A stretch of 62,609 nt of DNA, counting the filler, from Deltaproteobacteria bacterium (GTDB lineage: Bacteria > JAEEML01): the NCBI GenBank assembly GCA_016283195.1. It is 4 parts of 4 records of this genome, joined end to end, with 100 filler letters (N's around TTAATTAATTAA, not from the genome) between each part and the next. Parts side by side here need not be neighbours in the genome. Positions count along the whole stretch, not along the records: positions 34,660 to 62,609 come from JAEEML010000125.1; 3 more parts are not named here. One strand, written 5' to 3'. The notes beneath the pieces are model-generated. The model made no database searches and was not told the DNA's origin. It saw only the letters and a list, made by a program, of their open reading frames with translations. This document shows positions 16,316 to 46,484 of this stretch, piece by piece (position 1 is the stretch's first letter; every line of letters starts with the position of its first letter). The translations under genes and the position numbers were made by a program.

Positions 16316-16318
16316 AAG

Positions 16319-19409: not shown

Positions 19410-19417
19410 AAAAAACC

Positions 19418-19873: not shown

Positions 19874-19908
19874 CTTAATACCGCAAGAGAATAATATGGT
19901 GTCCAAGG

Positions 19909-20357: not shown

Positions 20358-20404
20358 CGCTTTTTGAAACAGAGGTTAGAGATGATTAGGGCGGTAAAAG
20401 GGCA

Positions 20405-21223: not shown

Positions 21224-21355
21224 ACTATTATCTCCTTAAAATTAGTTAGTTACAGCTGCTAATAATCGGCAGCAAATTCACTGGCTGATCTAGCACGCTA
21301 TATAATAAAATACCAGATAAATCATACTTACTTGGTAGGAAATAGCGCTTTTATT

Positions 21356-23154: not shown

Positions 23155-23175
23155 AGTGGAAAGTCCTAAAGAAGA

Positions 23176-24204: not shown

Positions 24205-24213
24205 TGTTTACTC

Positions 24214-25095: not shown

Positions 25096-25141
25096 TCGTT
25101 CCTCCTCAAACACCGCATCTATGCTACTAAATAAAGCCGTT

Positions 25142-25948: not shown

Positions 25949-26057
25949 CTTATTTATGCTCCCAGAATTTGCTCCCTTCCGGCAGTCGTGATAACCTAGG
26001 TTACAGTAGTTTCTTTGCCTCTTGTTGGCAACAGGCTAATTTTTACAGAGTGTTAAT

Positions 26058-27212: not shown

Positions 27213-27808
27213 TGGATAAAAATCTAGCGGAAATTCTTAATTTTTCTTTTGAGCTTGATAAGCTTAAACAAATAAAAAGACAAAATATAACCAGTGGGGA
27301 ACTGAGGCCGGAAACTACAGCTGAGCATTCTTGGCATTTGGCAATGCTAGTGCCGCTTTTGGCTCCTTATGCCAAAGAGCCGGTTGATGAATATGCGGCT
27401 ATGATTATGGCCAGTATTCATGATGTGGTGGAAATTGAAGCTGGTGATACCTATGCCTATGACGCGGCCGGCCATCTTGGCAAGTTTGAGCGTGAAGAGC
27501 AGGCGGCTGCCAAAACTTTTGGCCTTTTACCAAAAGATTTAAACGAAAAATTTTCCCAAAGCTGGCACGAATTTGAGGCGGGGCAGACGCCGGAAGCCCG
27601 TTTTGTGCGGGCTCTTGACCGCCTGCAGCCGCTAATGTTGCACCGCCTGACGGATTTTGCTGTTTGGCGGCAAAAAAAAGTGCGCCTTAGCCAGGTGTTG
27701 GCACGGGTGAGCGAGGTAAAAGAAAATATGCCGGCGCTCTGGCCATTTATTGAGGAAACACTTGATATTGCATGTAAAAAAGGAGCAATGATTGCCGATG
27801 TAACATGA
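27212..27808 (+). CDS. HD-domain phosphohydrolase
   Basis: ETTAEHSWHLA, HDVVEI.AGD and LDRLQP motifs. Confidence 0.9.
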   Translation: MDKNLAEILNFSFELDKLKQIKRQNITSGELRPETTAEHSWHLAMLVPLLAPYAKEPVDEYAAMIMASIHDVVEIEAGDTYAYDAAGHLGKFEREEQAAAKTFGLLPKDLNEKFSQSWHEFEAGQTPEARFVRALDRLQPLMLHRLTDFAVWRQKKVRLSQVLARVSEVKENMPALWPFIEETLDIACKKGAMIADVT

Positions 27809-27887
27809 AAAATCGGCAGAATCATTGACAGAATTTGAATCGCTGTTAGAGTCTTTTCAGCTTACTTTTTTAGGAGAGAGGCGGAAT

Positions 27888-30800
27888 ATGAGTGATTTAG
27901 GTGACATTGAACTGGATGATATGTTTGACGGATTGGAAAAGTCGGACCAACCGGCCAAGGAAGAGCCCAAAGCGGCCGCAGATGCTAAAGATGCTGCTTT
28001 GGAGCTGGAATCCGTTGAACCTATTGAGGAGCTGGAAGTGGAAGAGATAAAGCCGGCCGGTGCTGTACCTCCACCGCCATTGCAGCGGACTGCCACCGGG
28101 GCTATGCCTCCGCCTTTACAGAGAACAGCAACAGGAACTCTGCCGCCACTGCAGCGTACGGCCACCGGAGCCATGCCTCCGCCTATTATGAAAAAACGCG
28201 ATTATACCCCTGGAGGAGTGTGGAACGGGCGCACCAATTTTGATGATCTTTTTGCCCTGGATTCTTCTCCATTGCCATCGGCGCGCGGCGGGTTGGAAGA
28301 GAAAGTAGAATTCTTCCGCGAAAAACTAAGGCGTAGTGAAGCGGTGGTGACCAGGTTTAAAGATGCCTGGGGTGTGCGTGAGGGGGAGCTTTCGGCTCTC
28401 GAAGATGTTTATAACAAAGAAAAAACTGCCCACAAAGAAGCTGACGATAAAGTGGCAAATTTAGAGCAAAAACTCCATGCTCATGAGCAGTTTATGGAGC
28501 AGAAAAAGCAGGAATTTACCGCTTATGGCAAAAAAGTGGAGCAGGCCTTTGCCAAAAAAGCCGAGCAGGAAGCCGCTTTAGAAAAGAAAATAAGCGACCT
28601 TAATACGCAAAAGGCTGAACTTTCCACCTCACTCGATGAGCTTAATAAATCAAAAGAGGCCCTTTCTGCCGAGCTTAATGAAGCTAAAGAGAGTGCTCGC
28701 CAGGAAAGCGAGAATTATGAGGCCAAAATAGCCGATATCAATGCCGCGCATGATGCCGAAATGGTTAAACTTTCGGCTACTCATGCCGAAGAAATGCAGG
28801 ATTTAAAGGTCTCTTATGCCGCCGAGGTCTCCTCTTTGCAAACCGAACTTTCCACAGTGAAAAATCAAAGCGAAGAGGATTTGGCAGCTCGTGATGCCGC
28901 TATCGAAAAACTCAAAGAAGCTGTTTCTATGCAAAAAGAGGCTATTGATGAACGCGATGGTCTTATTGGCGAGCGCGAAGCCAGCATAGGCGAATTAAAT
29001 GATGAGCTTAAGCGGGTAAAAGAAGCCCATGAGGCCGAGATTTCCGAGCTTAGCGCTGCTCATGCCGATGAGCTTAATGAATGTAAAGCCGAGGGCGTGG
29101 CGCAGGTTGGTGCTTTGCAACAGGATTTGGAGGCGGCCAAAAACCATGCGGCGGAAGAGATAGCCGTACGCGATGAAGCTATCGAAAAGCTGAAGGAAGC
29201 GGTGGCTGTTCAAAAAGAGCAACTTGGTTCGCTGGGGGCGGCCAAGGAAGAGGCCGATAGCGCTATAGCCGTACGCGATGAAGCTATAGAAAAGCTCAAA
29301 GAGGCGGTGGCTATTCAGAAGGAGCAACTTGGCGAGATTTCCGCGGCTAAAGAAGAAGCTGATAGCGCTATAGCGGTGCGCGATGAAGCTATAGAAAAGC
29401 TCAAAGAGGCGGTGGCTATCCAAAAAGAGGCCATTAATGAGCGCGATGCAAATATTGGTAATTTAAATGAAAAAATCGGCGCTATGGCCGGCGAATTACA
29501 GGCGGAAAAAGAAGCCCATGAGGCTAAAAACGCAGAAACGGCCGCCGCCCATGAAGCCGAGATCAATAATCTTAAAGCCGAGCATGAGAGCGAACTCACA
29601 GAGCTTAGTGCTGTGCATGCCGGTGAGATAAATGAGTTAAAAGCGGAAAATGAGGCCCAGGTTGGGGCTTTGCAACAGGATTTGGATGCCGCCAAAAGTC
29701 AGGCGGCCGCTGAAATAGCGGTGCGCGATGAAGCTATAGAAAAGCTGAAAGAGGCTGTGGCTGCCCAAAATGAGCAGCTTGGCGCTTTGGGTGCGGCTAA
29801 AGAAGAGGCTGATAGTGCCATAGAAGTGCGCAATGAGGCCATCGAAAAGCTGAAAGAGGCAGTGGCTCTGCAAAAAGAGCAGCTTAGCGAAATTTCCGCA
29901 GCCAAAGAAGAGGCGGATAGCGCTATAGCGGTGCGCGATGAGGCTATAGAAAAGCTCAAAGAGGCGGTGGCTATCCAAAAAGAGGCCATTAGCGAGCGCG
30001 ATGTAAATATTGGTGATTTAAACGAAAAACTAGGTGCTATGGCCGGTGAATTGCAAGCTGCTAAAGATGCCCATGAAGCTAAGAGTGCGGAGGTGGCTGC
30101 AGCCCATGAAGCTGAGATTAATAATCTTAAAGCCGAGCATGAGAGTGAGCTCACGGAGCTTAGTGCTGCTCATGCAACCGAGCTTAATGAGCTAAAAGCA
30201 GAGAGCGAAGCCCAGGTTACTGCCCTGCAGCAAGATTTAGAAGGTGCTAAGAGCCGGGCGACCGAAGAAATAGCGGTGCGCGATGAAGCTATCGAAAAGC
30301 TGAAAGAGGCAGTATCTACTCAAAAAGAGCAAATAGATGAGCTGAATGCCGCTAAAGAAGAGGCGGATAGCGCTATAAGTGTGCGCGATGAAGCTATCGA
30401 AAAGCTGAAAGAGGCAATATCCAACCAAAAGGAGGCCCATGAGGCGGAGATTTCCGAGCTGAATGAGGCTCATGCCGGCGAGCTTAATGAATGTAAAGCC
30501 CAAAATGAAGCTGAAGTTTCGGCTCTACGCCAAGAAATGGAAGCTCTTAAAAGCCAGGCCGCCGATGATGTGGCTGTGCGCGATGAGGCTATTAATAAGC
30601 TGAGAGAAGCCGTTGATATGCAAAAAGAGGCTCTGCTTGAGCGTGAAAGCAGCATCAATGAGCTGAATGAGAAAATGCTGGCAGCCCAATCCGCTTATGA
30701 AAAAGAAATGAATGAGCGGGTGCAGCAACATGAAGAAAAACTAAACGAAATGAGTGCCGATTTTGAGGCCAAAATGGCGGAGCTCGGCCAAGAACACGAA

Positions 30801-31402
30801 GCCAAGGTTGGTAGGCTGAAAGATGCTCATGCTGCCGAAGTAGAGCGCTGGCAAAATGATATGGCGGCCATGAAAGAGCAGAAAGAGGCCGATATTTCTA
30901 TTCGTGATGAGGCTATAGAAAAATTGCGTGAGGCTGTGGCTATGCAAAAAGAGGCCATTAGTGAACGCGATAGCAATATTGAGGAGCTTTCTGCAGCCAA
31001 AGAGGCAGCGGACAGCACTATAGCCGAACGCGATGAAGCGATAAGCAAATTGCAAGAAGCTATTAGTGAGCGCGATAGCAATATTGAGGAACTCTCTGCC
31101 GCCAAAGAAGATGCCGATAGTGCCATAGCTGTGCGCGATGAAGCCATTGGCAAGCTGAAAGAGGCAATAACTGCGCAGGAAGAGCAGTTTAATGAACTCT
31201 CTGCCAGTAAAGAAGAGCTGGAAAGTGCTCTTGAAGTGCGCGATGAAGCCATCGGCAAGCTGAAAGAGGCTCTAACTTCGCAGCAAGAGCAAATGGATGA
31301 GCTAAATGCGGCTAAAGAAGAGGCCGATAGCGCCATAGCTGTGCGCGATGAAGCCATCGGCAAGCTGAAAGAGGCTCTAACTTCGCAGCAAGAGCAAATG
31401 GA
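27888..31402 (+). CDS. Very long repetitive coiled-coil protein, cut by the gap
   Basis: Acidic and Pro-rich N-terminus with three PPLQRTATG repeats, then many AIAVRDEAIEKLKEA units, often with a 28-aa period. Confidence 0.85.
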
Positions 31403-31502
31403 NNNNNNNNNNNNNNNNNNNNNNNNNNNNNNNNNNNNNNNNNNNNTTAATTAATTAANNNNNNNNNNNNNNNNNNNNNNNNNNNNNNNNNNNNNNNNNN
31501 NN
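31403..31502. other. Artificial contig linker
   Basis: N run with a central TTAATTAATTAA. Confidence 0.98.
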
Positions 31503-31504
31503 AA

Positions 31505-31798
31505 GAAGGTCCCACGGGCGGGTCGATAAGCGTCGGCTTTTATAGCGACCACCTCACCACTAAAGAAGAGTTCGTGGCTATTCGGGAGAAAATCATCGAC
31601 ACGCTGGAAGCCAAAGGGGGCAAATTTAGCCACGCTATGAGCGGAGCGGAAATGAGCGCCGCCCAGCTCAAAGAAAAGGCCATCGGTTCCTATATTGTGG
31701 AAAATAATGGGAAAAAATATATGGTTATGGTTAATTCCGATTCAGAATTCGGCGAATTTGGTGGCAGCTACGGCCTGCGCCTTATGCTAAAAAAGTAA
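31505..31798 (+). CDS. Hypothetical protein, C-terminal fragment
   Basis: Open frame from the contig edge to the TAA ending at 31798. Confidence 0.5.
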   Translation, partial: EGPTGGSISVGFYSDHLTTKEEFVAIREKIIDTLEAKGGKFSHAMSGAEMSAAQLKEKAIGSYIVENNGKKYMVMVNSDSEFGEFGGSYGLRLMLKK

Positions 31799-31850
31799 AT
31801 TCCAGAAATATATCAGCTAGGTAGAAAGACTCTTCCGCCCAAGCGACGAA

Positions 31851-31940
31851 ATGCCAAGTGGAATCTGTGATATCACCGACCGCCGCATCTCCAGTAAGGG
31901 CTGTAGCTACTACGGCTTCCGCTGCGTCTTTGATAAATAA
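31851..31940 (+). pseudogene. Remnant resembling an FGE-sulfatase/C-type-lectin-fold C-terminus
   Basis: Encodes MPSGICDITDRRISSKGCSYYGFRCVFDK*, with a terminal GFRC motif. Confidence 0.4.
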
Positions 31941-32067
31941 GAGCCGCCCTCGGCAAAACAAAAGGCAATAATTTCCACTTTAAATTAACTAGCTTTATTG
32001 GCTCATAAGAATGTGAAAGAGCATTGGGCGAATCTATTCCTTTTAAAAAAAGGGCCCTTACATAGAA

Positions 32068-32646
32068 TCAATATTTCAGCAAATAATAATAAAATGCGGC
32101 AAATTCCCTAAAAGCCGTGTATATATTTCTCAGCTCAAAATAATAATCAGCAGGGGCGCTGTTAATTTTTATGAGGCCGGCTTTTTTCATGGCCAGGTGT
32201 ATTCTCATCAGATGGGAATATTGTGAAATATTGATGACGCTTTCCAGCTTATTCTGGCGGAGAAAATTTTTTACAAATAAGACAGAATGTTCGGTATTTA
32301 TGCCGTTATTATCTACTACTATTTTGGCGCCGGGAATTTCTCCTTTTTTAATGAGGTAATCTTTCATTATGGCCGCCTCATCATGGCCATTAGGGTCAAT
32401 GCCGCCAGTAACAATGATAAAATTAGCCAATCCGGCATTATATACGGCAATGGTTTTATCTAATCTGGCTGCTAATCTTCTGGAAGGGGTTTTGTCCTTG
32501 TTGACTTTATTGCCATATACGACAATTACATCAGCTTTTTGCGCTTTAGCGGATAAGCCCCAAAAACTATTAATTACGGTATGCAGCAAGAAAAATGAAA
32601 CAAAACAAACGAATAGATATTTTGTAATTTTGAAAACTAGCTTCAT
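32068..32646 (-). CDS. YdcF/DUF218 (ElyC/SanA-like) protein
   Basis: ADVIVVYG, RLDKT, IIVTGG, EAAIMKDYL, NTEHS and HLMR motifs. Confidence 0.85.
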   Translation of the reverse strand: MKLVFKITKYLFVCFVSFFLLHTVINSFWGLSAKAQKADVIVVYGNKVNKDKTPSRRLAARLDKTIAVYNAGLANFIIVTGGIDPNGHDEAAIMKDYLIKKGEIPGAKIVVDNNGINTEHSVLFVKNFLRQNKLESVINISQYSHLMRIHLAMKKAGLIKINSAPADYYFELRNIYTAFREFAAFYYYLLKY

Positions 32647-32766
32647 TATAGCGCTTTCTTTCGTATATTTTTACTCTTTAAAGGCCTTATAAATACTCAC
32701 TGCCATCTCCCAGAATTTTAAAAACAGAGTGGCTTAATCTCGCTATTTTAAAAATTAGTCAGCTTT

Positions 32767-34119
32767 TTACTTGCTCAAAAGGCATACCGTCTCCACATGG
32801 CTGGTCATGGGGAACATATCCACCGGCTGCACTTTTTTAATTTGATACAGTCCATTTAGGTGTAAAAAAGCCAAATCGCGGGCAAGCGTTAGCGGATTAC
32901 AGCTAACATATATTATTTTAGCCGGCGCCATTTGGCAAATGGTGGCTAAAAGTCCCTGGTCGCAACCTTTGCGCGGCGGATCAACCACCACTACATCAGC
33001 CGCCGCTCCCGGTTTATCGAGGATTTTAGGCACAACTTCTTCCGCTTTACCGACATAAAAATCGGCATTAAGAATATTATTAAGACGGGCATTTTGCCGG
33101 GCGTTCTCGGTGGCTTCACCGATTATTTCCACTCCGAGAACCGCTTTGGCGTATCTAGCCAAAAAGAGGGCAATGGTGCCCGTGCCGCAGTAAAGATCCC
33201 AAACCGTTTCCCGGCCGGAAAGTTCAGCAAAATCAACCACTACCTGGTATAAAACCTCTGTTTGTTCCCCATTAATCTGGAAAAATGAGCGCGGGCCCAA
33301 GCGGAAATTTAAAGCCCCTATTTTTTCCTCAATATAAAGCGGGCCGTAAAGCGGTATAAGTTCCTGGCCAAGAACCGCGTTGCCCTTAGCGGTATTGACA
33401 CAGAGTGAAATACTCCTAACGCCGAGGGCTTTTAAGGCGGCTACCAGGCGCTCGCTCTGCGGCAAGCGGCGGCCATTAACAATGAGAGACACCAGCACCT
33501 CGCCGCTACCACGCGCTTCACGGATTAGCAGATGGCGCACTAATCCGCGGCCTGTCTGCTCGCTATAAAGCGAAATTTGCCCCTTTTCTAAAAAGGCCAG
33601 AATAGTTTTAACTATTTTGGCGGCTTTTGGGGTAGATAAAAGGCAATTATCCTGGGCTATGAGGCGGTGTGAGCGCTCACCATAAAAACCGGCTACATAG
33701 TGCCCGCCGGCCGTGTATCCCAAGGGCAAGAGAGTTTTATTCCGGTAATGCCAGGGATTTTTCATGCCCAGAACCGACGCTACCGGCAGAGATAAATCAT
33801 ACTTCTCAAGAGCGGCCATAACCTGGTCCCGTTTCCATTTAAGCTGGGCTTCATAGCGCATCATCATTAATTGACAGGCGCCGCATTTTTCGGCCAGCGG
33901 ACAAGGGGGATCACAGCGATCCGGCGAGGGAACAAGAAGGCGCCTGATGCGCCCGATATCCTGCTTTGGCCCCCGCTTTAGAAGCTGCACTTCCACCTGG
34001 TCTTTGGGAATGGCTCCTTTGACTATAAGTGGCCGTCCGTCTGCCAGGTATGCCAGGCCTTCACCGGCGGTTGTTAGATTAGTAATGGTGACTATTGGCC
34101 AGGGATTATGGGAGGTCAT
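32767..34119 (-). CDS. rlmD: 23S rRNA (uracil-5)-methyltransferase, RlmD/TrmA family
   Basis: TRAM domain, CPLAEKCGAC, SFFQIN, DLYCGTG, DPPRKG, YVSCNP and DMFP.T.HVE motifs. Confidence 0.92.
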   Translation of the reverse strand: MTSHNPWPIVTITNLTTAGEGLAYLADGRPLIVKGAIPKDQVEVQLLKRGPKQDIGRIRRLLVPSPDRCDPPCPLAEKCGACQLMMMRYEAQLKWKRDQVMAALEKYDLSLPVASVLGMKNPWHYRNKTLLPLGYTAGGHYVAGFYGERSHRLIAQDNCLLSTPKAAKIVKTILAFLEKGQISLYSEQTGRGLVRHLLIREARGSGEVLVSLIVNGRRLPQSERLVAALKALGVRSISLCVNTAKGNAVLGQELIPLYGPLYIEEKIGALNFRLGPRSFFQINGEQTEVLYQVVVDFAELSGRETVWDLYCGTGTIALFLARYAKAVLGVEIIGEATENARQNARLNNILNADFYVGKAEEVVPKILDKPGAAADVVVVDPPRKGCDQGLLATICQMAPAKIIYVSCNPLTLARDLAFLHLNGLYQIKKVQPVDMFPMTSHVETVCLLSK

Positions 34120-34558
34120 TTATTTGTGCCGCGTTTTGCCAGGCCGGGGCAGCCGGTTTACCAACCAAAAAGCCCTGTAAGAGCGGGCACCCCATCTTGG
34201 TAACAATAGCGCGTTGGTGTTCGGTTTCAATGCCCTCGGCCACCACCAGCATCTTTTCGCCGGCAGCATAGTCTAAAATATGGCGAATCAGGCGTGATCG
34301 CGGGCTATCTTCTTCGAGATGTTGCAAGAGCTCAAGATCAAGTTTCACCACATCCGGGCGCAGCTCAATAAGAGTGTTGAGGCTGGAATAGCCGGAGCCG
34401 AGATCGTCAAGAGCTATCGCAAAACCGGCCTCTCTAAGGGGCGCCAAAAGGCGATTCAGTTTGGTAAAATCATGGATAGCCTCGGTCTCGGTCACTTCAA
34501 AAACTATCTGCTTGGCGTATTTGCCAAAAGTGGCGGCAAGATGGTCAAAAAGGTCGGG
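34106..34558 (-). CDS. EAL-domain protein, C-terminal fragment
   Basis: IALDDLGSGYSSL, VKLD, VVAEGIET and QGFL motifs. Confidence 0.9.
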   Translation of the reverse strand, partial: PDLFDHLAATFGKYAKQIVFEVTETEAIHDFTKLNRLLAPLREAGFAIALDDLGSGYSSLNTLIELRPDVVKLDLELLQHLEEDSPRSRLIRHILDYAAGEKMLVVAEGIETEHQRAIVTKMGCPLLQGFLVGKPAAPAWQNAAQINDLP

Positions 34559-34559
34559 G

Positions 34560-34659
34560 NNNNNNNNNNNNNNNNNNNNNNNNNNNNNNNNNNNNNNNNN
34601 NNNTTAATTAATTAANNNNNNNNNNNNNNNNNNNNNNNNNNNNNNNNNNNNNNNNNNNN
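34560..34659. other. Artificial contig linker
   Basis: N run with a central TTAATTAATTAA. Confidence 0.98.
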
Positions 34660-36570: not shown

Positions 36571-37590
36571 ATGACTATTGCCCAAAGCATTGATGAGCTT
36601 AGAGCTCGCCATTTGCCGGCTATTATGCAACTTTTAGCCGCCGGCCCGCAGGAAATAACCCCAAAAAATTCCTCATTACTTGAAGAATGCGCCTATCAGC
36701 TAAATACCGGCGGCAAGCGCCTTAGAGCCCTTCTGCCCCTGGTAATTGCCCAGGCTCTCGGCAATGACCCGGCCAAACTTGTGCCCTTTGGCGCTGCCTG
36801 CGAAATGCTGCACAATGCCACTTTGGTGCACGATGATGTGCAAGACGGCGATGATGAGCGGCGCGGCGCCCCCACCGTGTGGAAGCGTTATGGCCTGCCG
36901 GCGGCCATCAACTGCGGCGATGCCATGTTTTATTATGCGCTTTCCCTGCTCTATACACTTGATATTACAGCCGAGCAAAAAGTAGCCCTGAGCTCGTTTT
37001 TTATGCAGGAGACTTTAAAAGTCATTAACGGCCAGGAGCTGGAATTTGCTCTGCAAAAGGCCGAAAATCCCACTCTAGCCCAATATAGCGTCATGGTGGA
37101 AGGCAAAACTTCCGGTCTCTTTGCCCTGCCCATTGTGGGGGCGGCTAAAATCTGCGGCGCCGCGCCGGCTATCCAAGAGGCGCTGGCTAACGCCGCTAAA
37201 TATTTGGGCATACTCTTTCAAATTCAGGATGATTTTTTAGACATCTACGGCCAAAAAGGGCGCGCTTTTGTCGGCAGTGATATTGCCGAGGGCAAGCGCT
37301 CGTTTTTGGCGCTTTATGCCCTGTCTGCCACTAAAGATCATGGCCGCCTAAGGGCTATTTTGGACACTCCGCGCAATGAAACTTCCAAGGAAATGATAGC
37401 CGAAGCCATTGCCATCTTTGACAGCGTGGATACGGCCGGCGCTGCCTTGCAAGAGATAAACACTTTAAAAAATAAAGCCATGGATGCCGTCTCCGCTACG
37501 CTCTTCCCTGGCGCTGCCGAGCTCATTAGCGCTATTGCCGATATGCTGCTTGTGGCTATAAAGGATGAGCCCCGCTTAATCACCGGCTAA
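36571..37590 (+). CDS. Polyprenyl diphosphate synthase
   Basis: GGKRLR, LVHDDVQDGDDERRG, GKTS and FQIQDDFLD motifs. Confidence 0.93.
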   Translation: MTIAQSIDELRARHLPAIMQLLAAGPQEITPKNSSLLEECAYQLNTGGKRLRALLPLVIAQALGNDPAKLVPFGAACEMLHNATLVHDDVQDGDDERRGAPTVWKRYGLPAAINCGDAMFYYALSLLYTLDITAEQKVALSSFFMQETLKVINGQELEFALQKAENPTLAQYSVMVEGKTSGLFALPIVGAAKICGAAPAIQEALANAAKYLGILFQIQDDFLDIYGQKGRAFVGSDIAEGKRSFLALYALSATKDHGRLRAILDTPRNETSKEMIAEAIAIFDSVDTAGAALQEINTLKNKAMDAVSATLFPGAAELISAIADMLLVAIKDEPRLITG

Positions 37591-37749
37591 GGCTTTTCCG
37601 GTGAGCACCCAGCGCCCTTTTTGCGCCGACCCCTCGCGAGAAATAAGCCCTTCATTCTTTAGTTTCCTGATATAGAATTTTACTAAATCACGTTTTATAC
37701 CCAGTTTTTCGGCCAGTTCGGTTTGCGAAATCTGCGGAATAGAAGGCAA
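37576..37749 (-). CDS. 57-aa winged-HTH mini-ORF or gene remnant
   Basis: Manual translation from TTG: (M)PSIPQISQTELAEKLGIKRDLVKFYIRKLKNEGLISREGSAQKGRWVLTGKALAGD*. Too short for the ORF track. Confidence 0.6.
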   Translation of the reverse strand: MPSIPQISQTELAEKLGIKRDLVKFYIRKLKNEGLISREGSAQKGRWVLTGKALAGD

Positions 37750-37754
37750 AAAGT

Positions 37755-37894
37755 GGCTCTTGGTGTGTAATTAGGAGTTTGTGACTTGGAAGTGAAGGGG
37801 AGAAGGAACGGTGACCGTCATATCGCGTACGAAAGAACCCGATTTTCACCAATTAGCCGCAGCTAAACTAGCTAAGCTAGTAACACCAAGAGCC
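37755..37894 (-). ncRNA. Candidate structured ncRNA, copy 2
   Basis: Perfect 12-bp closing stem GGCUCUUGGUGU/ACACCAAGAGCC. Hairpins CUAGC-UUA-GCUAG and UUAGC-UGCG-GCUAA, followed by ACUUUUU. Homologous to 11662-11797. Confidence 0.75.
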
Positions 37895-37943
37895 TAAGAA
37901 GTAATAGCATAATTTAAGAAAACCTCAACTCAAAATATAGAAA

Positions 37944-40900
37944 CTAGTATAGAACAGGAATAATATTAGCTTCACAATAGTCTGAGCTATAAGTGCACCA
38001 CTTGTCACTAAAGAGACTTACGTGCCCTTTGTTATTTCCTTTGCTGACGGTGAGAGCATCACTATTATCCAAAATACGGAATCCAGGAGATAGTTGACCG
38101 CGCTTACTAAAGCTCACAGAATTATATAATGTATAATCATGGTTGTGAATAACTGTTTTCTTGACAGATGCACTCGTTCCAGATGCATAAAGACAAGCAA
38201 TATCGCCATGAGCATTAAAGACCATCGCGTCACAGGAGGTAAGCGAACGATTAATATGGTTTTTCACAATCAGACCATTAAACTCTTTTGCAGATATACA
38301 TTCATTGGTTGATTTTTCAACAATGTGGTGTGCTCCATAAGACCAACTACGTTCCCCCCAGATATAATTATCTGTACCATCGAAAGTATATGTATAATTC
38401 TTGCAATACTTATCACCAGTAGTTTCGTATCTCCAAAAACATTGTGTAGAAATATTATAGTGTAAATGACTATCATAGTAGACATTATATCTTGTCTCTT
38501 TTACTTCGTTGCAATGATAATAATGCTGTCCCTTTACTTCCCACATTTGCCCCAACCAAGCATACATGCCTGGGCTACAGGTATTTTTGCTACCACTTTG
38601 GCGCTGAGCATAGCCGGAAGCGGTGTGGCGAGTTAAGAGCAAGAGCGTATTATCACTATTCATAGTAAATTTCTTACGGAAAGTGACGGGCGAAGCACTT
38701 TCACCACTCACGCCGCTAACGCTTACATAGGGCAGAGTAAGGTTGCTGCTGGTAAATTTCGCGCTGGTATCAAGCACATTCTTAGCCGTTGCAAACCAAG
38801 TAGCATCACTTACCGAGCTGGAGCAGCAAGAGACACCATTAAGGCTGGTTGATACATAGTAAGAAACCTCCGCCACACTACTTTCAGCTGCGCCATAAAC
38901 AGCCTTTATCTGAGTAGTATAAGGACCTTCCGGCTGTGAAGAATCTTTGCTCGGTTTACAATAGCCGCCGCTTTCGGCATCAATCCAGCTAGCAGAGCTA
39001 ATCCTGCTCTTTGGAGCCGAGCGACATTTAAAGGTGTAACCGGCGGTATTCAAATTATTATGCGTAAATTTAACACGCATGGCACTACCTGCCGGGTTTA
39101 ACCAGCCAACAACATCTTTGTGACAAGCGTTCTCAAATGGCATGGAGCTGCTAATTGTCGGAGCCACAATTGAAACTTTGGTATCACAATTAGCGCCCTG
39201 CCAGCCAGTCAAACAATACTGGCAATTTGTGGTAATATCAAAGTTACTATTACATGACACACACTTCGCAGTGCCGGAAGAATCCGAGCAAGTGCCATGG
39301 CCGTTACAGGTAGCCGAGGTACAAGCTGGTTCACAGCTGCCGTTGCCATCGTTATCCTGATAGCCGCTTTCACAAGCAGCACAGTGCTCGCCTGCCCAGT
39401 GGGAATTACAAGCACACTTGGCGCTGCCGCCAACTATAGAGCAAGTACCATGATTGCTGCAGCCACCAAAGGTGTTACAATCCGGGAGACAAGTACCGTT
39501 GCCATCGTTATCTTGATAGCCGCTTTCACAAGCTGCGCAATTCGGTGCTGCCCAGTGAGAATTACAACTGCAAGTGACCGAGCCACTGGCATCAGAGCAA
39601 GTGCCGTGGCTGTTACAGGTAGAAGAGGTACAAGCTGGTTCACAGCTACCGTTGCCATCGTTATCTTGGTAGCCGCTTTCACAAGCAGCGCAATTCGGTG
39701 CTGCCCAGTGGGAATTACAAGCACACTTGGCACTGCCGCTGCTATCAGAACAAGTGCCGTGGCCGTTACAGGTAGAAGATGTACAAGCTGGTTCACAGCT
39801 GCCGTTGCCATCGTTATCTTGATAGCCGCTTTCGCAAGCAGCACAGTGCTCGCCTGTCCAGTGGGGATTACAAGCACACTTGGCACTGCCGCTAACTATA
39901 GAGCAAGTTCCATGATTGCTGCAGCCGCCAAAGGTGTTACAATCCGGGAGACAGGTACCGTTACCATCGTTATCCTGATATCCGGAATCACAAGCGCAAT
40001 CAACACGGCCGGTAGTGCCGTTTACAAAACAGTGCGCGTTATCCTGACACGATAAATTAGCGGTGTCACAATTCGGTTCACAAGTTTGGTCGTTATTGAC
40101 ATCTTGATAGCCGGTGGCGCAAGCATCGCAATAGCGTCCTTGATAGCCATTGGCACAGGAACAAACCACTTCACCGGAGCCATCATTACAAGTACCGTGG
40201 CCATTACAATTACCGGCTGTGGCACAAGTGGGCAAACAGGAACCGTTGGTATCGTTATCCTGATAGCCGCTGTTACACTTACAAATAGCTTCGCCGCTGG
40301 TATCTTCGCAATGAGCATTGGAGCCACAAACTTTAGCAGAACAATCCGGGAGACAAATGCCGTCACCGTTGTTGTCTTGGTAACCGGCAGCACATTTGGT
40401 ACAAGAGCCGTTCTCATCTTTGGCATAACCTTCGCTACAAACACAGGTATTAGCCAATTCACCGCTACAGGTACCATGGCCGTTACAAACATTATTTACA
40501 CCGCCGGGGCAAGGTGTACAATCCGGGCCGGCATAACCGGGCAGACATTTGTCACAATTAATACCAGTAAAGCCATCTTTACATTCGTTACAATCAGTGC
40601 CTTTAAAGTGACCGTTACAAGTACAGCGGCCGTTTACATCACAAGTGCCGTGACCGTTACAGGCATTATCCGCTCCGCCTGGGCAGGGCTTGGAACAATC
40701 GCTGTCATACCAGCCATAAACACAGCTGTTACAAGCCGGATAACCGGTAAAGTGACCGTCACAACCGGAACAATCTTCGCCTTGCACATTATCTTGGCAA
40801 TGGCATTTGCCGTCGGCATCACAAGTACCTTGATTATTACAAATATTACCGATGCCGCCGGGACATTCCAAAGTACAGGTATTGCCATAATAGCCATAAG

Positions 40901-42308
40901 CGCATTTATTGCACTGGCCCTCATCGTCTCTAGCCCAGCCAGGAGCACATTCGGTACAGAGGCCGTTGGCATCAACCTTCCAGCCGCCCTTTTCGTGGCT
41001 AATATCGCATTTACAGCTGCCGTCACCATCAAGATTATCATTGCAAACACCGTGCCCGCCGCAAATGCCGGCCTCAGTACCAAAGCCGGGGCAAGTTTGC
41101 CGACAATCGCTACCATAATAGCCGGGGGCACACCTATCGCAATTGGGGCCATCCCAACCGGTGGCGCAGGTGCAATCGGGGCCGGAGCGGTTGGCTGTAC
41201 ATTCATTACACAAATCGCCTTGAAAGCCTTTATCACATTGGCAGGTACCGGGGCTACTCAGACCATCGAGACAAGTACCATGACCATTGCAAACACCGGC
41301 TTCTGTACCGAGACCGGGGCAGGGTTCACAATTTTCACCAAAATAATTATCATTACATTCCGCACAGTTTTCACCGCTATGGGCCGGATCGCATTCGCAA
41401 TTATCACCGGCGCGGCCGTTGCCGCAGCTTTCACAATTTAAGCCGACAAAACCTTCAGCACACTGGCAAAGGCCGGAACCATTTATGCCCATAGAGCAGG
41501 TTCCATGACCGCTGCAAATGCCCTTTTCGCTACCAAGGCCCGGACAGGGCAGACAATCTTCACCAAAATAGCCATCGGTGCAACTGTCACAGGCGCTGCC
41601 GCTAAAACCAGTGGCACAAGCGCACTCGGAGAGCTGGCCATCGCTATTGGCATCTTTACAGCTATAACCATGCTCAACAGTACAAGTTGCCGAACAACCA
41701 TCGCCGCTCTCTTCATTGCCGTCATCGCAAGCTTCACCGGAATCGGAAGATCCGTCGCGCGCAGCTAAAATAAAGCCATCGCCGCATTTAGCTTTTTGAC
41801 AAGTACCGTTAGCACCGGAGGGACAACTGTCGGTAACTATATAATTGCCGTCGTCGCAACCATTCTCACCAAGCTCCGCTCCCACACGCATACCATCTCC
41901 GCAAATAGTTGTGCATACTGTGGGTGAGCTCTTATCGCAATTCCAGCCGGCTTCTTTTTGGCAGGTAGCCGAACAACCATCACCGCTCACTTCATTGCCA
42001 TCATCACATTCTTCGGTATCTTCTAATTTGTTGTTACCGCAAACAACACTTTTGCCAGGCACACAAATGGCTTCAGCTTCGGCACAATGTTGAGAAACAA
42101 CATCACAATCTTCATCGGAGCTGCAGGGCTTTCTACACACTTTGTCATAGCATACAAGCCCAGATAAGCAGCCTTTCGGGGCATCAGCACAGCTTTTACC
42201 CTCTTCGATACTGGGTTCGTTTGGAATAACTACTTTAGTTCCGCAAGCAGTCATCTCAAGAGCCAATAGAACCCCAACTAACGATAGCAGCTTTTTTTGG
42301 TGGTACAT
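37944..42308 (-). CDS. Giant Cys-rich surface lipoprotein (EGF/laminin-like stalk plus conserved C-terminal domain)
   Basis: Lipobox-like MTAC, CDDGN repeats, many CNGHGTC and YQDNDGNG modules; C-terminal domain paralogous to 11871-14114. Confidence 0.88.
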   Translation of the reverse strand: MYHQKKLLSLVGVLLALEMTACGTKVVIPNEPSIEEGKSCADAPKGCLSGLVCYDKVCRKPCSSDEDCDVVSQHCAEAEAICVPGKSVVCGNNKLEDTEECDDGNEVSGDGCSATCQKEAGWNCDKSSPTVCTTICGDGMRVGAELGENGCDDGNYIVTDSCPSGANGTCQKAKCGDGFILAARDGSSDSGEACDDGNEESGDGCSATCTVEHGYSCKDANSDGQLSECACATGFSGSACDSCTDGYFGEDCLPCPGLGSEKGICSGHGTCSMGINGSGLCQCAEGFVGLNCESCGNGRAGDNCECDPAHSGENCAECNDNYFGENCEPCPGLGTEAGVCNGHGTCLDGLSSPGTCQCDKGFQGDLCNECTANRSGPDCTCATGWDGPNCDRCAPGYYGSDCRQTCPGFGTEAGICGGHGVCNDNLDGDGSCKCDISHEKGGWKVDANGLCTECAPGWARDDEGQCNKCAYGYYGNTCTLECPGGIGNICNNQGTCDADGKCHCQDNVQGEDCSGCDGHFTGYPACNSCVYGWYDSDCSKPCPGGADNACNGHGTCDVNGRCTCNGHFKGTDCNECKDGFTGINCDKCLPGYAGPDCTPCPGGVNNVCNGHGTCSGELANTCVCSEGYAKDENGSCTKCAAGYQDNNGDGICLPDCSAKVCGSNAHCEDTSGEAICKCNSGYQDNDTNGSCLPTCATAGNCNGHGTCNDGSGEVVCSCANGYQGRYCDACATGYQDVNNDQTCEPNCDTANLSCQDNAHCFVNGTTGRVDCACDSGYQDNDGNGTCLPDCNTFGGCSNHGTCSIVSGSAKCACNPHWTGEHCAACESGYQDNDGNGSCEPACTSSTCNGHGTCSDSSGSAKCACNSHWAAPNCAACESGYQDNDGNGSCEPACTSSTCNSHGTCSDASGSVTCSCNSHWAAPNCAACESGYQDNDGNGTCLPDCNTFGGCSNHGTCSIVGGSAKCACNSHWAGEHCAACESGYQDNDGNGSCEPACTSATCNGHGTCSDSSGTAKCVSCNSNFDITTNCQYCLTGWQGANCDTKVSIVAPTISSSMPFENACHKDVVGWLNPAGSAMRVKFTHNNLNTAGYTFKCRSAPKSRISSASWIDAESGGYCKPSKDSSQPEGPYTTQIKAVYGAAESSVAEVSYYVSTSLNGVSCCSSSVSDATWFATAKNVLDTSAKFTSSNLTLPYVSVSGVSGESASPVTFRKKFTMNSDNTLLLLTRHTASGYAQRQSGSKNTCSPGMYAWLGQMWEVKGQHYYHCNEVKETRYNVYYDSHLHYNISTQCFWRYETTGDKYCKNYTYTFDGTDNYIWGERSWSYGAHHIVEKSTNECISAKEFNGLIVKNHINRSLTSCDAMVFNAHGDIACLYASGTSASVKKTVIHNHDYTLYNSVSFSKRGQLSPGFRILDNSDALTVSKGNNKGHVSLFSDKWCTYSSDYCEANIIPVLY
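39270..39990 (-). repeat. Near-identical intragenic tandem repeats (153/156-nt units)
   Basis: YQDNDGNG codons recur at spacings of 156, 153, 153 and 156 nt; two unit types in the order B-A-A-B-A. Confidence 0.9.
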
Positions 42309-42369
42309 GGTAGTCTCCTCCCGTACAAGTCCACGGTCGCATTATACAATTTGATACAGAATATAACAA
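42309..42369 (-). promoter_or_regulatory. sigma70 promoter and conserved 5' leader of Cys-rich gene 2
   Basis: TTGTTA-N17-TATAAT (42369-42341), then the leader ACCGTGGACTTGTACGGGAGGAG. Confidence 0.75.
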
Positions 42370-42385
42370 GTTTTTTTAGTAGGAG

Positions 42386-44467
42386 CTAACAGCGTGATAA
42401 TATTGTATAACTTTCCAAAGCAATTAGATGGTTTACCAAATAATCGCTATTATGCCCGCCGGCAGGCAAGAGCAAAAGTTCTTCCATGCCGTCGCTCTTA
42501 GAAAAGGCCAAAACTAAATAACGGCCACATTGGACAGGCTTTTTAAAGAAGGAAAAACGGTAAGCGGCGCGCAGCACTATATGGCGCTCTTGAGAGACTA
42601 AATCCATAACAAAAGGCGCTTTTTTTGCCCGCAAATTTATGCGCAGGGTTTTGGGATAGTGCTCCTTTAAGTAAGCGGAAAACTTCTCCGGCGTAGCGAT
42701 AGCCAGGGGCAGCTTTTTAAGCCAGGGCAAGCTAACAATATTTTCCAAATCGGCCTTTGTAACCTTCTTTTGGTAAGAAGTGCGCACTCCGCCGCCCGTT
42801 AAGAGATAGAGACGCGCTCTGCTCCAAGGTACTTCGGCCTTCTGGAGAGTGTTAAAATAGAGAGCTTTTGTCTTGGTCACCATAGTGAGAAATTCGTGCG
42901 CTTTAAGAGATTCGGCCAGTTGCTGGATAGAGAGCTCGGTATATTTATAATTTTTGTCAAAATCGATTATGGTCACATAAGCTTCGCCGCTTTTTGAGGC
43001 AGCAAGGTAATCTTTAAAATGTTTTAACCAATCGGCATAAGCAAACTCATGGTGCCATTTAATAGCTTTTGGCCAAAAACGCATGGAAAATTCCAAAATA
43101 AGAATAGCCCCCAAAAGTATGCCGCCGAAGGCTAAATCGCGGCTTAAGAAGAGCAATTCGGAGCTATTAAGAGCCCACATAGCCAGGCCAACGGCCACAG
43201 TGCTGAAAATGAGGGTAAAGTAATGTTCCTGGCAAAAGGCCCGCATTTGCGCGGCAGCCAGACGCGAGCGCAGGATAAAGAAAAAGGCGCTCCCCAAAAG
43301 CAGGGCGACCATATCTTCGCGCAAAAAGAAATAGCCGATGCCAATAGAAATAATCCAGGTAACAATGCCCAGTTCATAGCTGATAAAATTAAGGTAGCGC
43401 CCCATTTTAGGTTTGGCAAAACCAAAAAGAGAGCTGCCATATTTCTTTAGATCAAAGTAAAAAAGGTTGGCCCAGGCAATGGAAATATCAAGCAAAGGGA
43501 TGGTGACAAAAAAGAAGACCGTCCAAAAAAGGGCAATAAAGCCGCCACGATCCATATTAAAGAAGCTCATAATCAGCAAAGTGCCGACACGCATAGAGAC
43601 CGAAGCCAGACCACTCAAAAAATAGCTAAAGCGCGGCCCTAATTTGCCGCAATTTTTCAGGCTTTTTATGGAGGCCACCGGCAGAGTCAGGTGCATATTC
43701 AAATTCACTCTTTGCCCGCGGAAGTGGCTGTCCTGCTGCTCAAAAGAGAGGTGCAGGCGCTCGTAAAGCGGAGCAGCAAAATAAATGGTGAGGACAGCCG
43801 AAACAGTAGCGGAGACCAAAGTGGCGTAAATAATGGCGGTTAAATTATAAATGGGCCACAGGAGGATGAGAGTCAAAAGCCAAGACACTTCGCCGGCGAT
43901 AATCGACCAGAGCGGGCGGTAAACTCGGCTAAAGCCATAAACAGCCGAATGAACAGTGCGGCTTAAAATACTGGCGGCCAGGCGAAAGAGCAGACAAAAG
44001 AGATATAAAACGGTGAATTGGCGATCGCTGCCCATATAAAGGGCTTCGCCGCCGATTAAAATGGCGATGGCTACGGCCAAAATAGCAGTGGCGGTGATTA
44101 CCGCAAAACTATACCAGGCATTTACCCGCCTCTGGCACCTGGTGAGGCGAAAGAGCTCCAAATCGCGGCGCACACCGGTGCGGAGTCCTTCCAGCTCGCC
44201 CCACCAAAAGGCTTCAAAAAGGCCTATTATGAGCCTTAAAAGCGCCAGCTCCAAAAACTGATCCTGACGCAATTTATTAAAAAACAAAAATAGTTCCACA
44301 AAATGCAAAAAAACGCCAATGCCCTTGGAAGCACCAAAAAGGCGCAGGCGGTACCAAGTGTAAGAAAGGGTGCGGTGGCCAAATAAAACGTCCTCAACGG
44401 TAGGGCGTTTTTCCTGCTCGCGATATAATTTTTTTAGACAGGCGGTTACATTATTAACTTTGTCCAT
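42386..44467 (-). CDS. Polytopic membrane protein with a soluble C-terminal domain, coupled to the RT
   Basis: Roughly a dozen hydrophobic segments in two blocks, then a ~220-aa soluble tail. Its ATG immediately follows the RT stop (TAGATG). Confidence 0.8.
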   Translation of the reverse strand: MDKVNNVTACLKKLYREQEKRPTVEDVLFGHRTLSYTWYRLRLFGASKGIGVFLHFVELFLFFNKLRQDQFLELALLRLIIGLFEAFWWGELEGLRTGVRRDLELFRLTRCQRRVNAWYSFAVITATAILAVAIAILIGGEALYMGSDRQFTVLYLFCLLFRLAASILSRTVHSAVYGFSRVYRPLWSIIAGEVSWLLTLILLWPIYNLTAIIYATLVSATVSAVLTIYFAAPLYERLHLSFEQQDSHFRGQRVNLNMHLTLPVASIKSLKNCGKLGPRFSYFLSGLASVSMRVGTLLIMSFFNMDRGGFIALFWTVFFFVTIPLLDISIAWANLFYFDLKKYGSSLFGFAKPKMGRYLNFISYELGIVTWIISIGIGYFFLREDMVALLLGSAFFFILRSRLAAAQMRAFCQEHYFTLIFSTVAVGLAMWALNSSELLFLSRDLAFGGILLGAILILEFSMRFWPKAIKWHHEFAYADWLKHFKDYLAASKSGEAYVTIIDFDKNYKYTELSIQQLAESLKAHEFLTMVTKTKALYFNTLQKAEVPWSRARLYLLTGGGVRTSYQKKVTKADLENIVSLPWLKKLPLAIATPEKFSAYLKEHYPKTLRINLRAKKAPFVMDLVSQERHIVLRAAYRFSFFKKPVQCGRYLVLAFSKSDGMEELLLLPAGGHNSDYLVNHLIALESYTILSRC

Positions 44468-45808
44468 CTAATTTTTCCTTCGGCAGGAGCGATTGCGCAA
44501 AACAACTAAAGAACGATATCCCCAAACCTCACGCACATGGCGGGGCGAATACTTACGCATCATGGCCGGGCTACCATTGCCGGTAGCCAGCTTAATCAAA
44601 AGACGGGTGAAACGGTAATCCAGCTGCTTTAGCTGCGACCTGTCAGTGACAATGCGGCGTAAAGCATCGGCATAAGGGTGGCTGTGCTGGCAGGTGGAAT
44701 TAAGCATGGAGTTTAAATGCCTGGCCAGTATTTTGCCCAGTTCATCGGGCGTAGGTTTTTCGCGTTGATACATTTTTACAATGTGCTCTAAACGTTCTTT
44801 GGCGGCCGCATAAAGCATGCCCATGCGTTTGGGGCGAATCATCACCGTGCCATGAAAATCTATGGAAAAGCCCAAAAATTCCACGCGGTTAGCGCCAGGA
44901 AAAGCAGGTGAGTCACAAGGGCGGCCGGCACCGTTAAAGTAGATAGAGAGCTGCTTTTTTTCATTTAATGAAAGGCCAAGTTCATTTAAGCCGCTGGAGA
45001 TAGTGGCAATGGCCTTTTTGGTGAGCTCCTCTTCAGGACTGATAAAGATAATGTCGTCGCCGTAACGGGCATAAAAGGTATCGGGCATAGCGGAGAGTGC
45101 GGCATCTAAGTGCGAAAGATAGAGGTTGGCAACGGCATTGGCCACCGGCGAACCGGTGGGAATTCCCTGCTCCATGCGCCCTTCCCGGCCGTTTATATCA
45201 ATAATAACCGGGCGAATACTCTCCCGAAAAACCTGCCAAAGCTCCTGATGACTCTCCACTTCACCGGGTCCCAGAAGAGTCTTAAGCCACTGCCAAATGG
45301 GCGCTCCGTCATATACGGGAATGGAATCAAAATAGGCCGAAATATCGGTGCGCACCAAATAAAGACCGCGCTGTTTGGGATCGGTAACTTTTTTACGATA
45401 AGCGCGCACATATCTGGCAAGAGCCTGCACCGCCCCGACATAAGAATAGCCGTCACGGTAAGAATAAACATTGGGCACCAGCGTTTTGGCTGTGTACATA
45501 TTAAGTATGGCGGTTATCGCCAGGTGCACTATGCGATCCACCGGCTTAAATTGGTAAACCGTGCGCTCTTTTTCATGGGTTACAATGCGAATGGCAACGC
45601 CAGGAGAAAAATTATAATCGCCGGCAGTAATATCTTTGGCAATAGCTTTACACAGGCGCTTTTCGGCAAAACGCATGCTAGTAATGGTGCAACCCTCCTG
45701 TTGCCTGGCTTCTGGGGTGTGGCGCCAAGCCGGGCTCTCGGCCACATGCAAAAGCGCCTGACGATAAATATCGCTTCCCTTAAGCAATTTCACCCACTCT
45801 ATTGCCAT
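44468..45808 (-). CDS. Reverse transcriptase, group-II-like, stand-alone
   Basis: KERTVYQFKPVDRIVH, YSYRDG, TDISAYFDSI, GIPTGSPVANAVANLYL, YARYGDD (YGDD at 45053-45064), FLGF and a thumb/X-like LKQLDYR segment. Confidence 0.95.
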   Translation of the reverse strand: MAIEWVKLLKGSDIYRQALLHVAESPAWRHTPEARQQEGCTITSMRFAEKRLCKAIAKDITAGDYNFSPGVAIRIVTHEKERTVYQFKPVDRIVHLAITAILNMYTAKTLVPNVYSYRDGYSYVGAVQALARYVRAYRKKVTDPKQRGLYLVRTDISAYFDSIPVYDGAPIWQWLKTLLGPGEVESHQELWQVFRESIRPVIIDINGREGRMEQGIPTGSPVANAVANLYLSHLDAALSAMPDTFYARYGDDIIFISPEEELTKKAIATISSGLNELGLSLNEKKQLSIYFNGAGRPCDSPAFPGANRVEFLGFSIDFHGTVMIRPKRMGMLYAAAKERLEHIVKMYQREKPTPDELGKILARHLNSMLNSTCQHSHPYADALRRIVTDRSQLKQLDYRFTRLLIKLATGNGSPAMMRKYSPRHVREVWGYRSLVVLRNRSCRRKN

Positions 45809-45836
45809 AAGAGTACCTGTTTTTTCAAAAAGAGGC

Positions 45837-46454
45837 TCATTTGATCGGCACAGCTTTTATTTGCACTTTGCCGTTTTCTACAGCCACCCGAAACTTCACA
45901 TCGCGACAGGCATATTTGCTCTTAAGCAAAGTTTGCTGCTTGGTAAGGGCTCCGGCAAGAGCCTCATAAGAGAGATTAGTATTTTGCCCCATCCCGGCCA
46001 AAGCGTTTTTATATTCGTTATATATATATTCCAAAGGCCTTCCGGCCTGAGCGGCCGGCGAAGTAGCCGGCGGGGCTATAGCCTGGGAAGATTGCGCATT
46101 TTGGGTCTCTTGCGCCTTTGGAGCTTGGGCAGCTTGCGGGGCTTGCGGCTTATTGGTGCTGGCGGTTATCTTGGCAGCACGCAGACGATCGCGCTTATAA
46201 GTGCCTTCTTCAATCTGGCGCATTATGCGATTCCAATAACCAAGGTAACTATTAAATTTTGCTACTAAATTATTGCGTTGAAAGCGCAGAGCGGTATTGG
46301 AAATCTGCTCTACTGTAGCCGCCCGCACCTTTTTGCTCACCGCTTCGAATTCATCAAGCGGAGCCAGGCGCTCAAGGCCCATAAAATATTGCTCATAAGC
46401 AAATTTAAGATGGGCTATATCACTTTCCAGTTCTTTCAGTTGTGCGTCATTCAT
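45837..46454 (-). CDS. MXAN_5187 C-terminal-domain-like protein
   Basis: YEQYFMGLERLAP, YWNRIMRQIEEGTYKRD and VKFRVAVENGKVQIKA, recognised from myxobacterial homologs. Confidence 0.7.
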   Translation of the reverse strand: MNDAQLKELESDIAHLKFAYEQYFMGLERLAPLDEFEAVSKKVRAATVEQISNTALRFQRNNLVAKFNSYLGYWNRIMRQIEEGTYKRDRLRAAKITASTNKPQAPQAAQAPKAQETQNAQSSQAIAPPATSPAAQAGRPLEYIYNEYKNALAGMGQNTNLSYEALAGALTKQQTLLKSKYACRDVKFRVAVENGKVQIKAVPIK

Positions 46455-46484
46455 CTGGGTATTTTGCTATATTCTTTATTTTTT

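Follow-up and report, generated by a model that had tools for sequence, protein, structure and literature searches.

Several described bacterial RNAs resemble, in position or in layout, the element analysed here. MicL and DapZ of enterobacteria are reportedly base-pairing small RNAs of the 3'-UTR type, which have a promoter of their own and use the terminator of the parent mRNA. In bacterial Y RNAs of the YrlA type, the two ends form a closing stem around modular internal hairpins and the 3' terminus is U-rich, and retrons are defined by a priming guanosine directly after an end-pairing stem. For the UG26-like group of reverse transcriptases (RT), we know of no RNA that has been described. UG/DRT systems carry a structured non-coding RNA next to the RT (PMC9226505), and class-2 RT systems with non-coding RNAs are the subject of two other reports (PMC13174585 and PMC12632851).

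Layout of the element and its place behind two lipoprotein genes

The window, meaning the whole stretch of 62,609 nt that was analysed, consists of four contigs (1–11301, 11402–31402, 31503–34559 and 34660–62609). A 140-nt element (copy 2) and a homologous 134-nt element (copy 1) lie on different metagenome contigs, both on the minus strand and each a short way downstream of one member of a pair of paralogous genes for Cys-rich lipoproteins. With a GC content of 47–49% and tetranucleotide correlations of 0.88–0.95 between contigs (0.93 between the two halves of contig 4), a single source organism is plausible, not proven. The linkers between the contigs (N44, TTAATTAATTAA, N44 at 11302–11401, 31403–31502 and 34560–34659) are artificial, and features that seem to span them, for example an ORF at 11346–11594, are artefacts. 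The features of both loci are as follows:

11663–11796, minus: structured small RNA copy 1, 134 nt (motif, sequence, fold, covariance model)
11871–14144, minus: paralogous lipoprotein gene, listed ORF of 757 aa, likely start ATG at 14114; its 3' end carries copy 1 (Pfam, BLASTP)
37576–37749, minus: winged-helix gene remnant, 57 aa, beginning right after the U-tract (Pfam HTH_24)
37748–37752, minus: U-tract of five U, 2 nt past P1; presumed 3' end (sequence)
37755–37894, minus: structured small RNA copy 2, 140 nt (sequence, fold, model R1)
37767–37790, minus: conserved unpaired 3' stretch UCCAAGUCA..ACUCCUAAUUAC, about 24 nt (unpaired in both folds)
37791–37850, minus: variable middle domain closed by helix P3 (GGUGAA/UUCACU), with GUACGCG (minimum-energy folds)
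37797–37806, minus: unpaired C/U-rich strand, 10 nt, inside the variable middle (fold)
37853–37866, minus: hairpin H2, 5 bp, with invariant UGCG loop; one pair doubly compensated
37868–37880, minus: hairpin H1, CUAGC, loop UUA, GCUAG; two of five pairs changed on both sides relative to copy 1 (CCGGC/GCCGG)
37883–37894, minus: 5' arm of closing stem P1, partner 37755–37766; 12 of 12 standard pairs in both copies
37901–37928, minus: promoter-like TTGAGG-16-TATTAC, 6 nt upstream of G37894 (read from sequence)
37944–42308, minus: Cys-rich EGF/DUF4215 lipoprotein gene, 1454 aa; its 3' end carries copy 2 (Pfam)
42386–49088, minus: row of four genes upstream of the copy 2 lipoprotein gene, on the same strand

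Both copies have the same layout: a 12-bp stem closes the element, inside it lie two small hairpins on the 5' side, a variable middle and a conserved unpaired 3' stretch, and a U-tract follows. The original prediction had described an element of about 140 nt on the minus strand, 49 nt past the lipoprotein stop codon. This element is present and begins at G37894 behind the stop codon at 37944–37946, with the 12-bp closing stem and the second hairpin with its invariant UGCG loop as they had been described, and the U-tract was found after both copies. The observation of a structured element as first read is thus confirmed. Copy 1 starts at G11796, 74 nt past the stop of the paralogous 757-aa gene. 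Four motifs that had been named as conserved (GUACGCG, UCUCCCCU, ACUUCCAAGUCA and ACUCYUAAUUACACACC) occur in both copies, and ACTTCCAAGTCA is found twice in the window compared with 0.20 occurrences expected in shuffles. A covariance model made from copy 1 only (R1) retrieved copy 2 at 68.6 bits (E 6e-14), and the next match in the window had an E of 0.22.

A weak promoter placed as in copy 1 had also been proposed for copy 2. Its hexamers, TTGAGG (37923–37928) and TATTAC (37901–37906) with a 16-nt spacer, are there, and they fail a promoter scan that demands T at the last −10 position. The corresponding site of copy 1, TTGACA-17-CACAAT (11803–11831), passes the scan with 10 of 12 consensus matches and ends 6 nt ahead of the first G, at the same distance as in copy 2. 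At the other end, copy 1 has six U, one nt past P1. A terminator scan found none between either lipoprotein stop codon and the RNA, and the U-tract is therefore probably where the lipoprotein mRNAs end as well. The U-tract itself was not called because the scan requires a loop of 3–8 nt; the roughly 110 nt inside P1 would be an unusual loop for an intrinsic terminator.

Both lipoprotein genes also have strong near-consensus promoters (TTGTNA-17-TATAAT, within 42309–42370 and 14115–14200 on the minus strand). Their leaders, a second non-coding feature that is conserved between the paralogs, are alike, 30–40 nt long, with a small hairpin with CUUGU just ahead of the ribosome-binding site.

Compared with MicL and DapZ, the element has a similar size (about 100–150 nt) and likewise occupies the extreme 3' end of a protein gene; it too is closely preceded by a promoter-like site and has a presumed shared terminator and a conserved unpaired candidate seed. 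It differs from them in that the promoter-like site follows the stop codon and does not lie within the coding region, and in that the terminator stem is a long-range closing helix of the 5' and 3' ends around a body of several hairpins. Furthermore, it has no sequence similarity to them, and the host belongs to an unrelated uncultured lineage without a known chaperone.

Conservation, fold and compensatory changes

The C-terminal 477 aa of the two lipoproteins are 51% identical as determined by BLASTP. In a codon alignment of 398 codons, the genes share 57% of amino acids, 61% of nucleotides and 44% of third codon positions, and at four-fold degenerate sites 26 of 83 are identical (31%). Saturation of the silent sites means that the duplication is old and that DNA free of constraint would by now be expected not to align. 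The 5' domain of the RNA is identical in 33 of 44 columns (75%) and the 3' domain, i.e., the last 42 alignment columns, in 33 of 42 (79%). Just upstream of the RNA, 13 of 34 flanking columns are identical, and just downstream 10 of 23; these matches are mostly the promoter-like hexamers and the U-tract. Judged by these alignments, the RNA is better conserved than the adjoining protein-coding DNA. Local gene conversion could also keep the copies alike, but on its own it would not explain the paired changes in the stems.

Among ORFs of at least 20 aa across the element, no reading frame is common to both copies. In the ORFs that cross it, the frame of the conserved 3' block differs between the copies, and on the plus strand a frame of 111 aa in one copy stands against frames of just 26 and 28 aa in the other. 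By its reading frames, the element is non-coding.

Copy 2 folds at −45 kcal/mol (z −4.16) and copy 1 at −47.9 kcal/mol (z −2.95), and none of 200 dinucleotide shuffles was as good in either case. The minus strand folds better than the plus strand (z −2.8 versus −2.1 for copy 1 and −4.5 versus −2.8 for copy 2), and, read on the plus strand, two U.G pairs of copy 1 turn into C.A mismatches. P1, H1 and H2 together comprise 22 pairs, of which 43 of 44 cells (97.7%) are paired in a model-based alignment of the two copies, the structure having been derived from these copies and the helices having been aligned with a model fitted to that structure. Four of the 22 pairs are changed on both sides between copy 1 and copy 2: one in P1 (C-G to U-A), two in H1 (C-G to U-A and G-C to A-U) and one in H2 (G-C to A-U). 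The compensation between CUAGC/GCUAG and CCGGC/GCCGG that had been pointed out at the start accordingly concerns two of the five H1 pairs. In addition, two P1 pairs shift from U.G in copy 1 to C-G or U-A in copy 2, and an A.G mismatch in H2 of copy 1 is a U-A pair in copy 2. The 44 stem columns contain 12 substitutions, and all 22 pairs are standard in copy 2.

With random bases at the substituted columns, all-standard pairing was obtained in 290 of 200,000 trials, and with random columns instead in none of 200,000. When the 3' partner strand was slid by 1–3 columns, pairing dropped from 97.7% to 28–44% and nearly all double changes were lost. A shuffle control was weak (26 of 500 shuffles reached the observed pairing values) because just two sequences exist. 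Helix P3 arises independently in the minimum-energy folds, as GGUAG/CUGCC in copy 1 and as GGUGAA/UUCACU in copy 2, and was left out of the covariation count because the copies cannot be aligned column by column in the middle. Within this two-sequence limit, the claim of an unannotated structured non-coding RNA with compensatory changes is supported, as the stem substitutions all keep the pairing. It is likely that a real, selected, structured RNA element is present.

Search for relatives, host lineage and genomic surroundings

In the whole window, Rfam 15 gave no match at the gathering threshold, in agreement with what had been predicted for this check. In 401-nt stretches around each copy, searched at E up to 10, only eukaryotic and archaeal families at chance level appeared (miRNA, lncRNA, snoRNA), and these at most touch an edge of the element. 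Nothing tRNA-like was detected by ARAGORN. An exact-motif scan was done with the two best-conserved motifs (pattern TTCCAAGTCAN{3,10}TAATTACACA). It found no locus in the genome contigs of 185,579 species (one genome per species), 10 loci in metagenome contigs, of which two are the window's own contigs and eight are chance matches without the element, and one chance locus in viral contigs that has no match to covariance model R2. Blastn searches against phage and plasmid collections gave no match. The element is thus an RNA family that is new as far as these searches reach, an orphan with two members.

Other searches were centred on Treponema. Blastn against five Treponema genomes returned chance matches of 13–24 nt only, model R2 matched none of 151 genomes of the Treponema-centred genus set at E ≤ 1, and among 40 relatives chosen in the same way it gave two matches, at E 3–7 only. 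The lipoprotein C-domain was found in none of 338 genomes of the Treponema-centred genus set and, among proteins of 416–1325 aa, matched only itself. These Treponema-centred genome searches say little about relatives of the RNA because Treponema proved not to be kin of the host.

A link to Treponema was suggested by the tryptophanyl-tRNA synthetase (TrpRS) gene (14301–15386, plus strand), which has 85% protein identity and 70–72% DNA identity to gut Treponema genomes. On the 20-kb contig of copy 1, this gene is the only substantial DNA similarity to Treponema, next to one other match of 147 nt, and in 20 kb of contig 4 no match to Treponema was seen. EF-G is 47% identical to Treponema, and RibF is 27–33% identical in five Treponema genomes and at most 36% across 401 Spirochaetota genomes. 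Two contig 4 proteins were found in none of the five Treponema genomes, and one of these two, which is NuoCD-like, had just 24–25% matches in 4 of 401 Spirochaetota genomes. The polyprenyl synthase is 33% identical to Treponema, with best matches of 52–58% that are labelled Deltaproteobacteria, Myxococcota or Bradymonas. For RibF, one relative has 70% identity, and the rest have at most 41% and are spread over many phyla. Treponema is ruled out as host, as the similarity of TrpRS is not borne out by EF-G, RibF, the contig DNA and the polyprenyl synthase. The distance of the markers from Treponema and Spirochaetota, together with the single close relative of RibF, points to a deep, poorly sampled lineage, and the Treponema-like TrpRS gene was probably acquired by horizontal transfer. 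As a single marker for the taxonomy of the host, TrpRS is misleading.

Downstream of copy 2, the 57-aa winged-helix remnant is followed by the convergent polyprenyl synthase gene. Its HTH_24 match covers profile positions 16–47 of 48, and by reading of the sequence its in-frame TAA falls inside the RNA. Similarity between the copies stops a few nt past the U-tract, where this remnant begins; the 3' end of the RNA is therefore also the edge of a conserved module. The remnant beginning at the end of the U-tract suggests a rearrangement edge; the other half of a split winged-helix gene was not seen at the far end of the operon. Downstream of copy 1, about 260 nt remain to the contig end, with the end of an apparent convergent gene. 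In another public run, a low-depth contig of 258 nt is identical over 37749–37938 and continues with 68 nt of unrelated sequence. The RNA may lie in a different downstream context in that sample, or the low-depth contig may be chimeric. Four DNA runs contained short identical fragments only and no variants. The contig of copy 1 also encodes a 426-aa Cys-rich surface protein (17452–18732, minus) with laminin-EGF, Fib_succ_major and Lcl_C domains.

Proposed function and alternative explanations

The explanation preferred here, and put forward tentatively, is a small RNA specific to this lineage and encoded where a lipoprotein gene ends. It would have a weak promoter of its own, share the terminator of the gene and act by base pairing through conserved unpaired C/U-rich stretches. 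This model builds on the observed homology, conserved structure, non-coding nature and position of the element, and it predicts transcription, the RNA ends, base pairing and targets. The small-RNA gene would have been kept by selection as two old, diverged copies, each forming the 3'-terminal module of a surface-lipoprotein gene. The RNA would probably be made by two routes. In one, a weak sigma-70-like promoter of the RNA itself would start transcription at the first G of the closing stem; in the other, the RNA would be the 3' end of the lipoprotein mRNA, a route considered because the stop codon and the RNA are not separated by any other terminator. For both transcripts the end would be the U-tract past P1, with stem and U-tract serving as terminator and protective clamp, and P1 and the two 5' hairpins may form a compact, nuclease-resistant body. 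The putative working surface consists of the C/U-rich UCUCCCCU and the 3' block ACUUCCAAGUCA-N3-ACUCYUAAUUAC, both unpaired and conserved. Most likely, these stretches would act as seeds and pair with purine-rich ribosome-binding regions in target mRNAs, in the way of small RNAs of the 3'-UTR type.

Target prediction within the window gave nothing specific. The rplM-rpsI junction of all five Treponema genomes is a perfect complement of bases 117–130 of copy 2. This lead was rejected as chance: the duplex energies for rpsI (−28.0/−28.9) are barely better than those of the best of 57 start regions of the window (−26.2/−26.8), a few random 14-mer hits per genome are estimated for a 140-nt query, and the genomes are not kin. 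Self-regulation through the start regions of the cognate lipoprotein genes was also discarded, as they rank 3 and 4 of 79 for copy 2 and 18 and 24 of 79 for copy 1, which is inconsistent between the copies.

A purely cis-acting element of the 3'-UTR is a somewhat unlikely alternative to the small RNA, though a substantial one. It would be an elaborate terminator or 3'-end protector that sets mRNA stability, with neither an independent small RNA nor trans targets. The lack of another terminator in front of the element, the U-tract directly after P1 in both copies, the weak promoter of copy 2 and the fact that the element stayed with the paralogous genes through an old duplication all fit such a role. 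However, a terminator or stabiliser needs neither about 25 nt of conserved unpaired sequence nor an invariant UGCG loop, and the promoter-like hexamers are placed in both copies for a start at the first G of P1.

Improbable, on the evidence at hand, is a protein-binding scaffold or decoy in the manner of Y RNA, 6S RNA or CsrB, in which the paired ends and unpaired loops would bind some protein. The compact shape with paired 5' and 3' ends, modular hairpins, an invariant tetraloop and conserved single strands would suit it, and with YrlA-type Y RNAs the element shares a similar size, the closing stem, the modular hairpins and the U-rich 3' end. Unlike the Y RNAs, it has no Rfam family match beyond chance even at E up to 10 and no tRNA-like part by ARAGORN. 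A Ro/TROVE domain was absent among 33 ORFs scanned with Pfam. Moreover, no candidate partner gene is conserved beside both copies, and repeated GGA-type motifs are missing.

The row of genes upstream of the copy 2 lipoprotein gene includes a 446-aa RT (44468–45808) with RT_UG26 as its best match (5.4e-30). The other genes of the row encode three proteins. The one of 693 aa, whose gene abuts the RT stop, has no family match, and the Atlas points only weakly to flippase-like membrane proteins of the multi-pass type; the one of 205 aa has an MXAN_5187 C-terminal domain; and the one of 867 aa has a Gly-Cys, hydrophobic and basic tail that in our own reading resembles a MYXO-CTERM sorting signal. 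This row may be an uncharacterised RT system; no non-coding RNA was found beside the RT within it. Copy 1 has no comparable gene row, and its upstream neighbour is the divergent TrpRS gene.

A loose analogy to the retron a1/a2-msr arrangement had been drawn in the original prediction and did not hold. Similar to retron msr-msd RNAs, the 5' and 3' ends pair as a1 and a2 do, by a 12-bp stem in both copies, small hairpins follow the 5' arm, and an RT gene lies on the contig of copy 2. In contrast to retrons, no RT lies directly downstream. The only RT is the UG26-like one 6.6 kb upstream, and with it the retron models stay far below their cut-offs (37.6 bits with the NCBIfam model, where 235 are required). 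In the 20 kb upstream of copy 1, no RT was seen among the ORFs scanned with Pfam. The bases after the 5' arm of P1 are U-A-C in both copies and include no guanosine. There is no long msd hairpin, as had already been noted; the folds of both copies agree in showing short hairpins of 3–6 bp inside P1. The retron was dropped, end pairing being the sole point of agreement with its definition. A diversity-generating retroelement was rejected as well: in blastn searches of the last 730–760 nt of both lipoprotein genes against the window (word size 7), only the paralog was found and no template repeat. An inverted match between H2 and the RT gene (72% over 32 nt) is level with the other 16 chance pairs.

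A different role for the RT is conceivable, namely that the element is the partner or template RNA of the UG26-like class-2 enzyme, which is encoded on the same strand and might use copy 1 in trans as a further substrate. Class-2 defence RTs reportedly make products templated by non-coding RNAs (PMC13174585), and the RNAs of class-2 UG/DRT systems (DRT2, DRT9, DRT10, UG27) are, like the element, structured, about 100–300 nt long, lineage-specific and on the strand of a class-2-like RT. Between the RT gene and its neighbours there is no room for an RNA of this kind, with a gap of 28 nt upstream and none ahead of the next ORF, and the element is a structured non-coding stretch found downstream on the strand of the RT. 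However, the known UG RNAs abut their RT (PMC9226505), whereas two large genes (693 and 1454 aa) separate RT and RNA here. Copy 1 lacks an RVT_1 domain among the Pfam-scanned ORFs of its contig, and what accompanies the RNA at both loci is the 3' end of a lipoprotein gene and not the RT. It is thus very unlikely that the element is the missing scaffold or template RNA of this RT, encoded at the far end of the operon and with an RT-less second copy; more broadly, and at equally long odds, it could be a new class of RNA that is physically tied to surface-lipoprotein genes in a gut lineage that is deep and uncultured.

That the element has no function at all, being a leftover of gene duplication that happens to fold, is hardly probable. 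It is true that only two copies exist, that no homologs were found and that expression is putative, but silent sites of the adjoining genes have diverged to 31% identity while the end domains of the element have kept 75–79%, and each of the 12 stem substitutions preserves pairing.

Least of all can be said for a DNA-level element, be it an inverted repeat of the MITE type or an anchor for recombination or gene conversion where a mobile lipoprotein cassette has its 3' edge, for although it would account for 12-bp terminal inverted repeats, for homology that stops a few nt past the U-tract at a truncated winged-helix gene and for the low-depth contig of another run with an identical RNA segment and different sequence from 37749 on, no target-site duplication was seen at either copy, both copies sit at the same place relative to paralogous genes and were therefore duplicated with the gene and not inserted separately, the arms of copy 1 mismatch as DNA and pair as RNA through G.U, and the compensatory changes in internal hairpins have no DNA-level rationale. 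A MITE or insertion-sequence remnant was likewise rejected, as the inverted ends lack a flanking direct repeat and only two copies are present, in equivalent places behind paralogs.

The practical value of a lipoprotein-linked small RNA is modest until homologs or transcripts are found. If expressed, it would represent a new small-RNA family from a very poorly sampled bacterial lineage and a clean case in which a small RNA and a surface-lipoprotein gene have stayed together since before an ancient duplication. Such a lipoprotein-coupled small RNA would also hint at RNA control of cell-surface proteins in gut bacteria.
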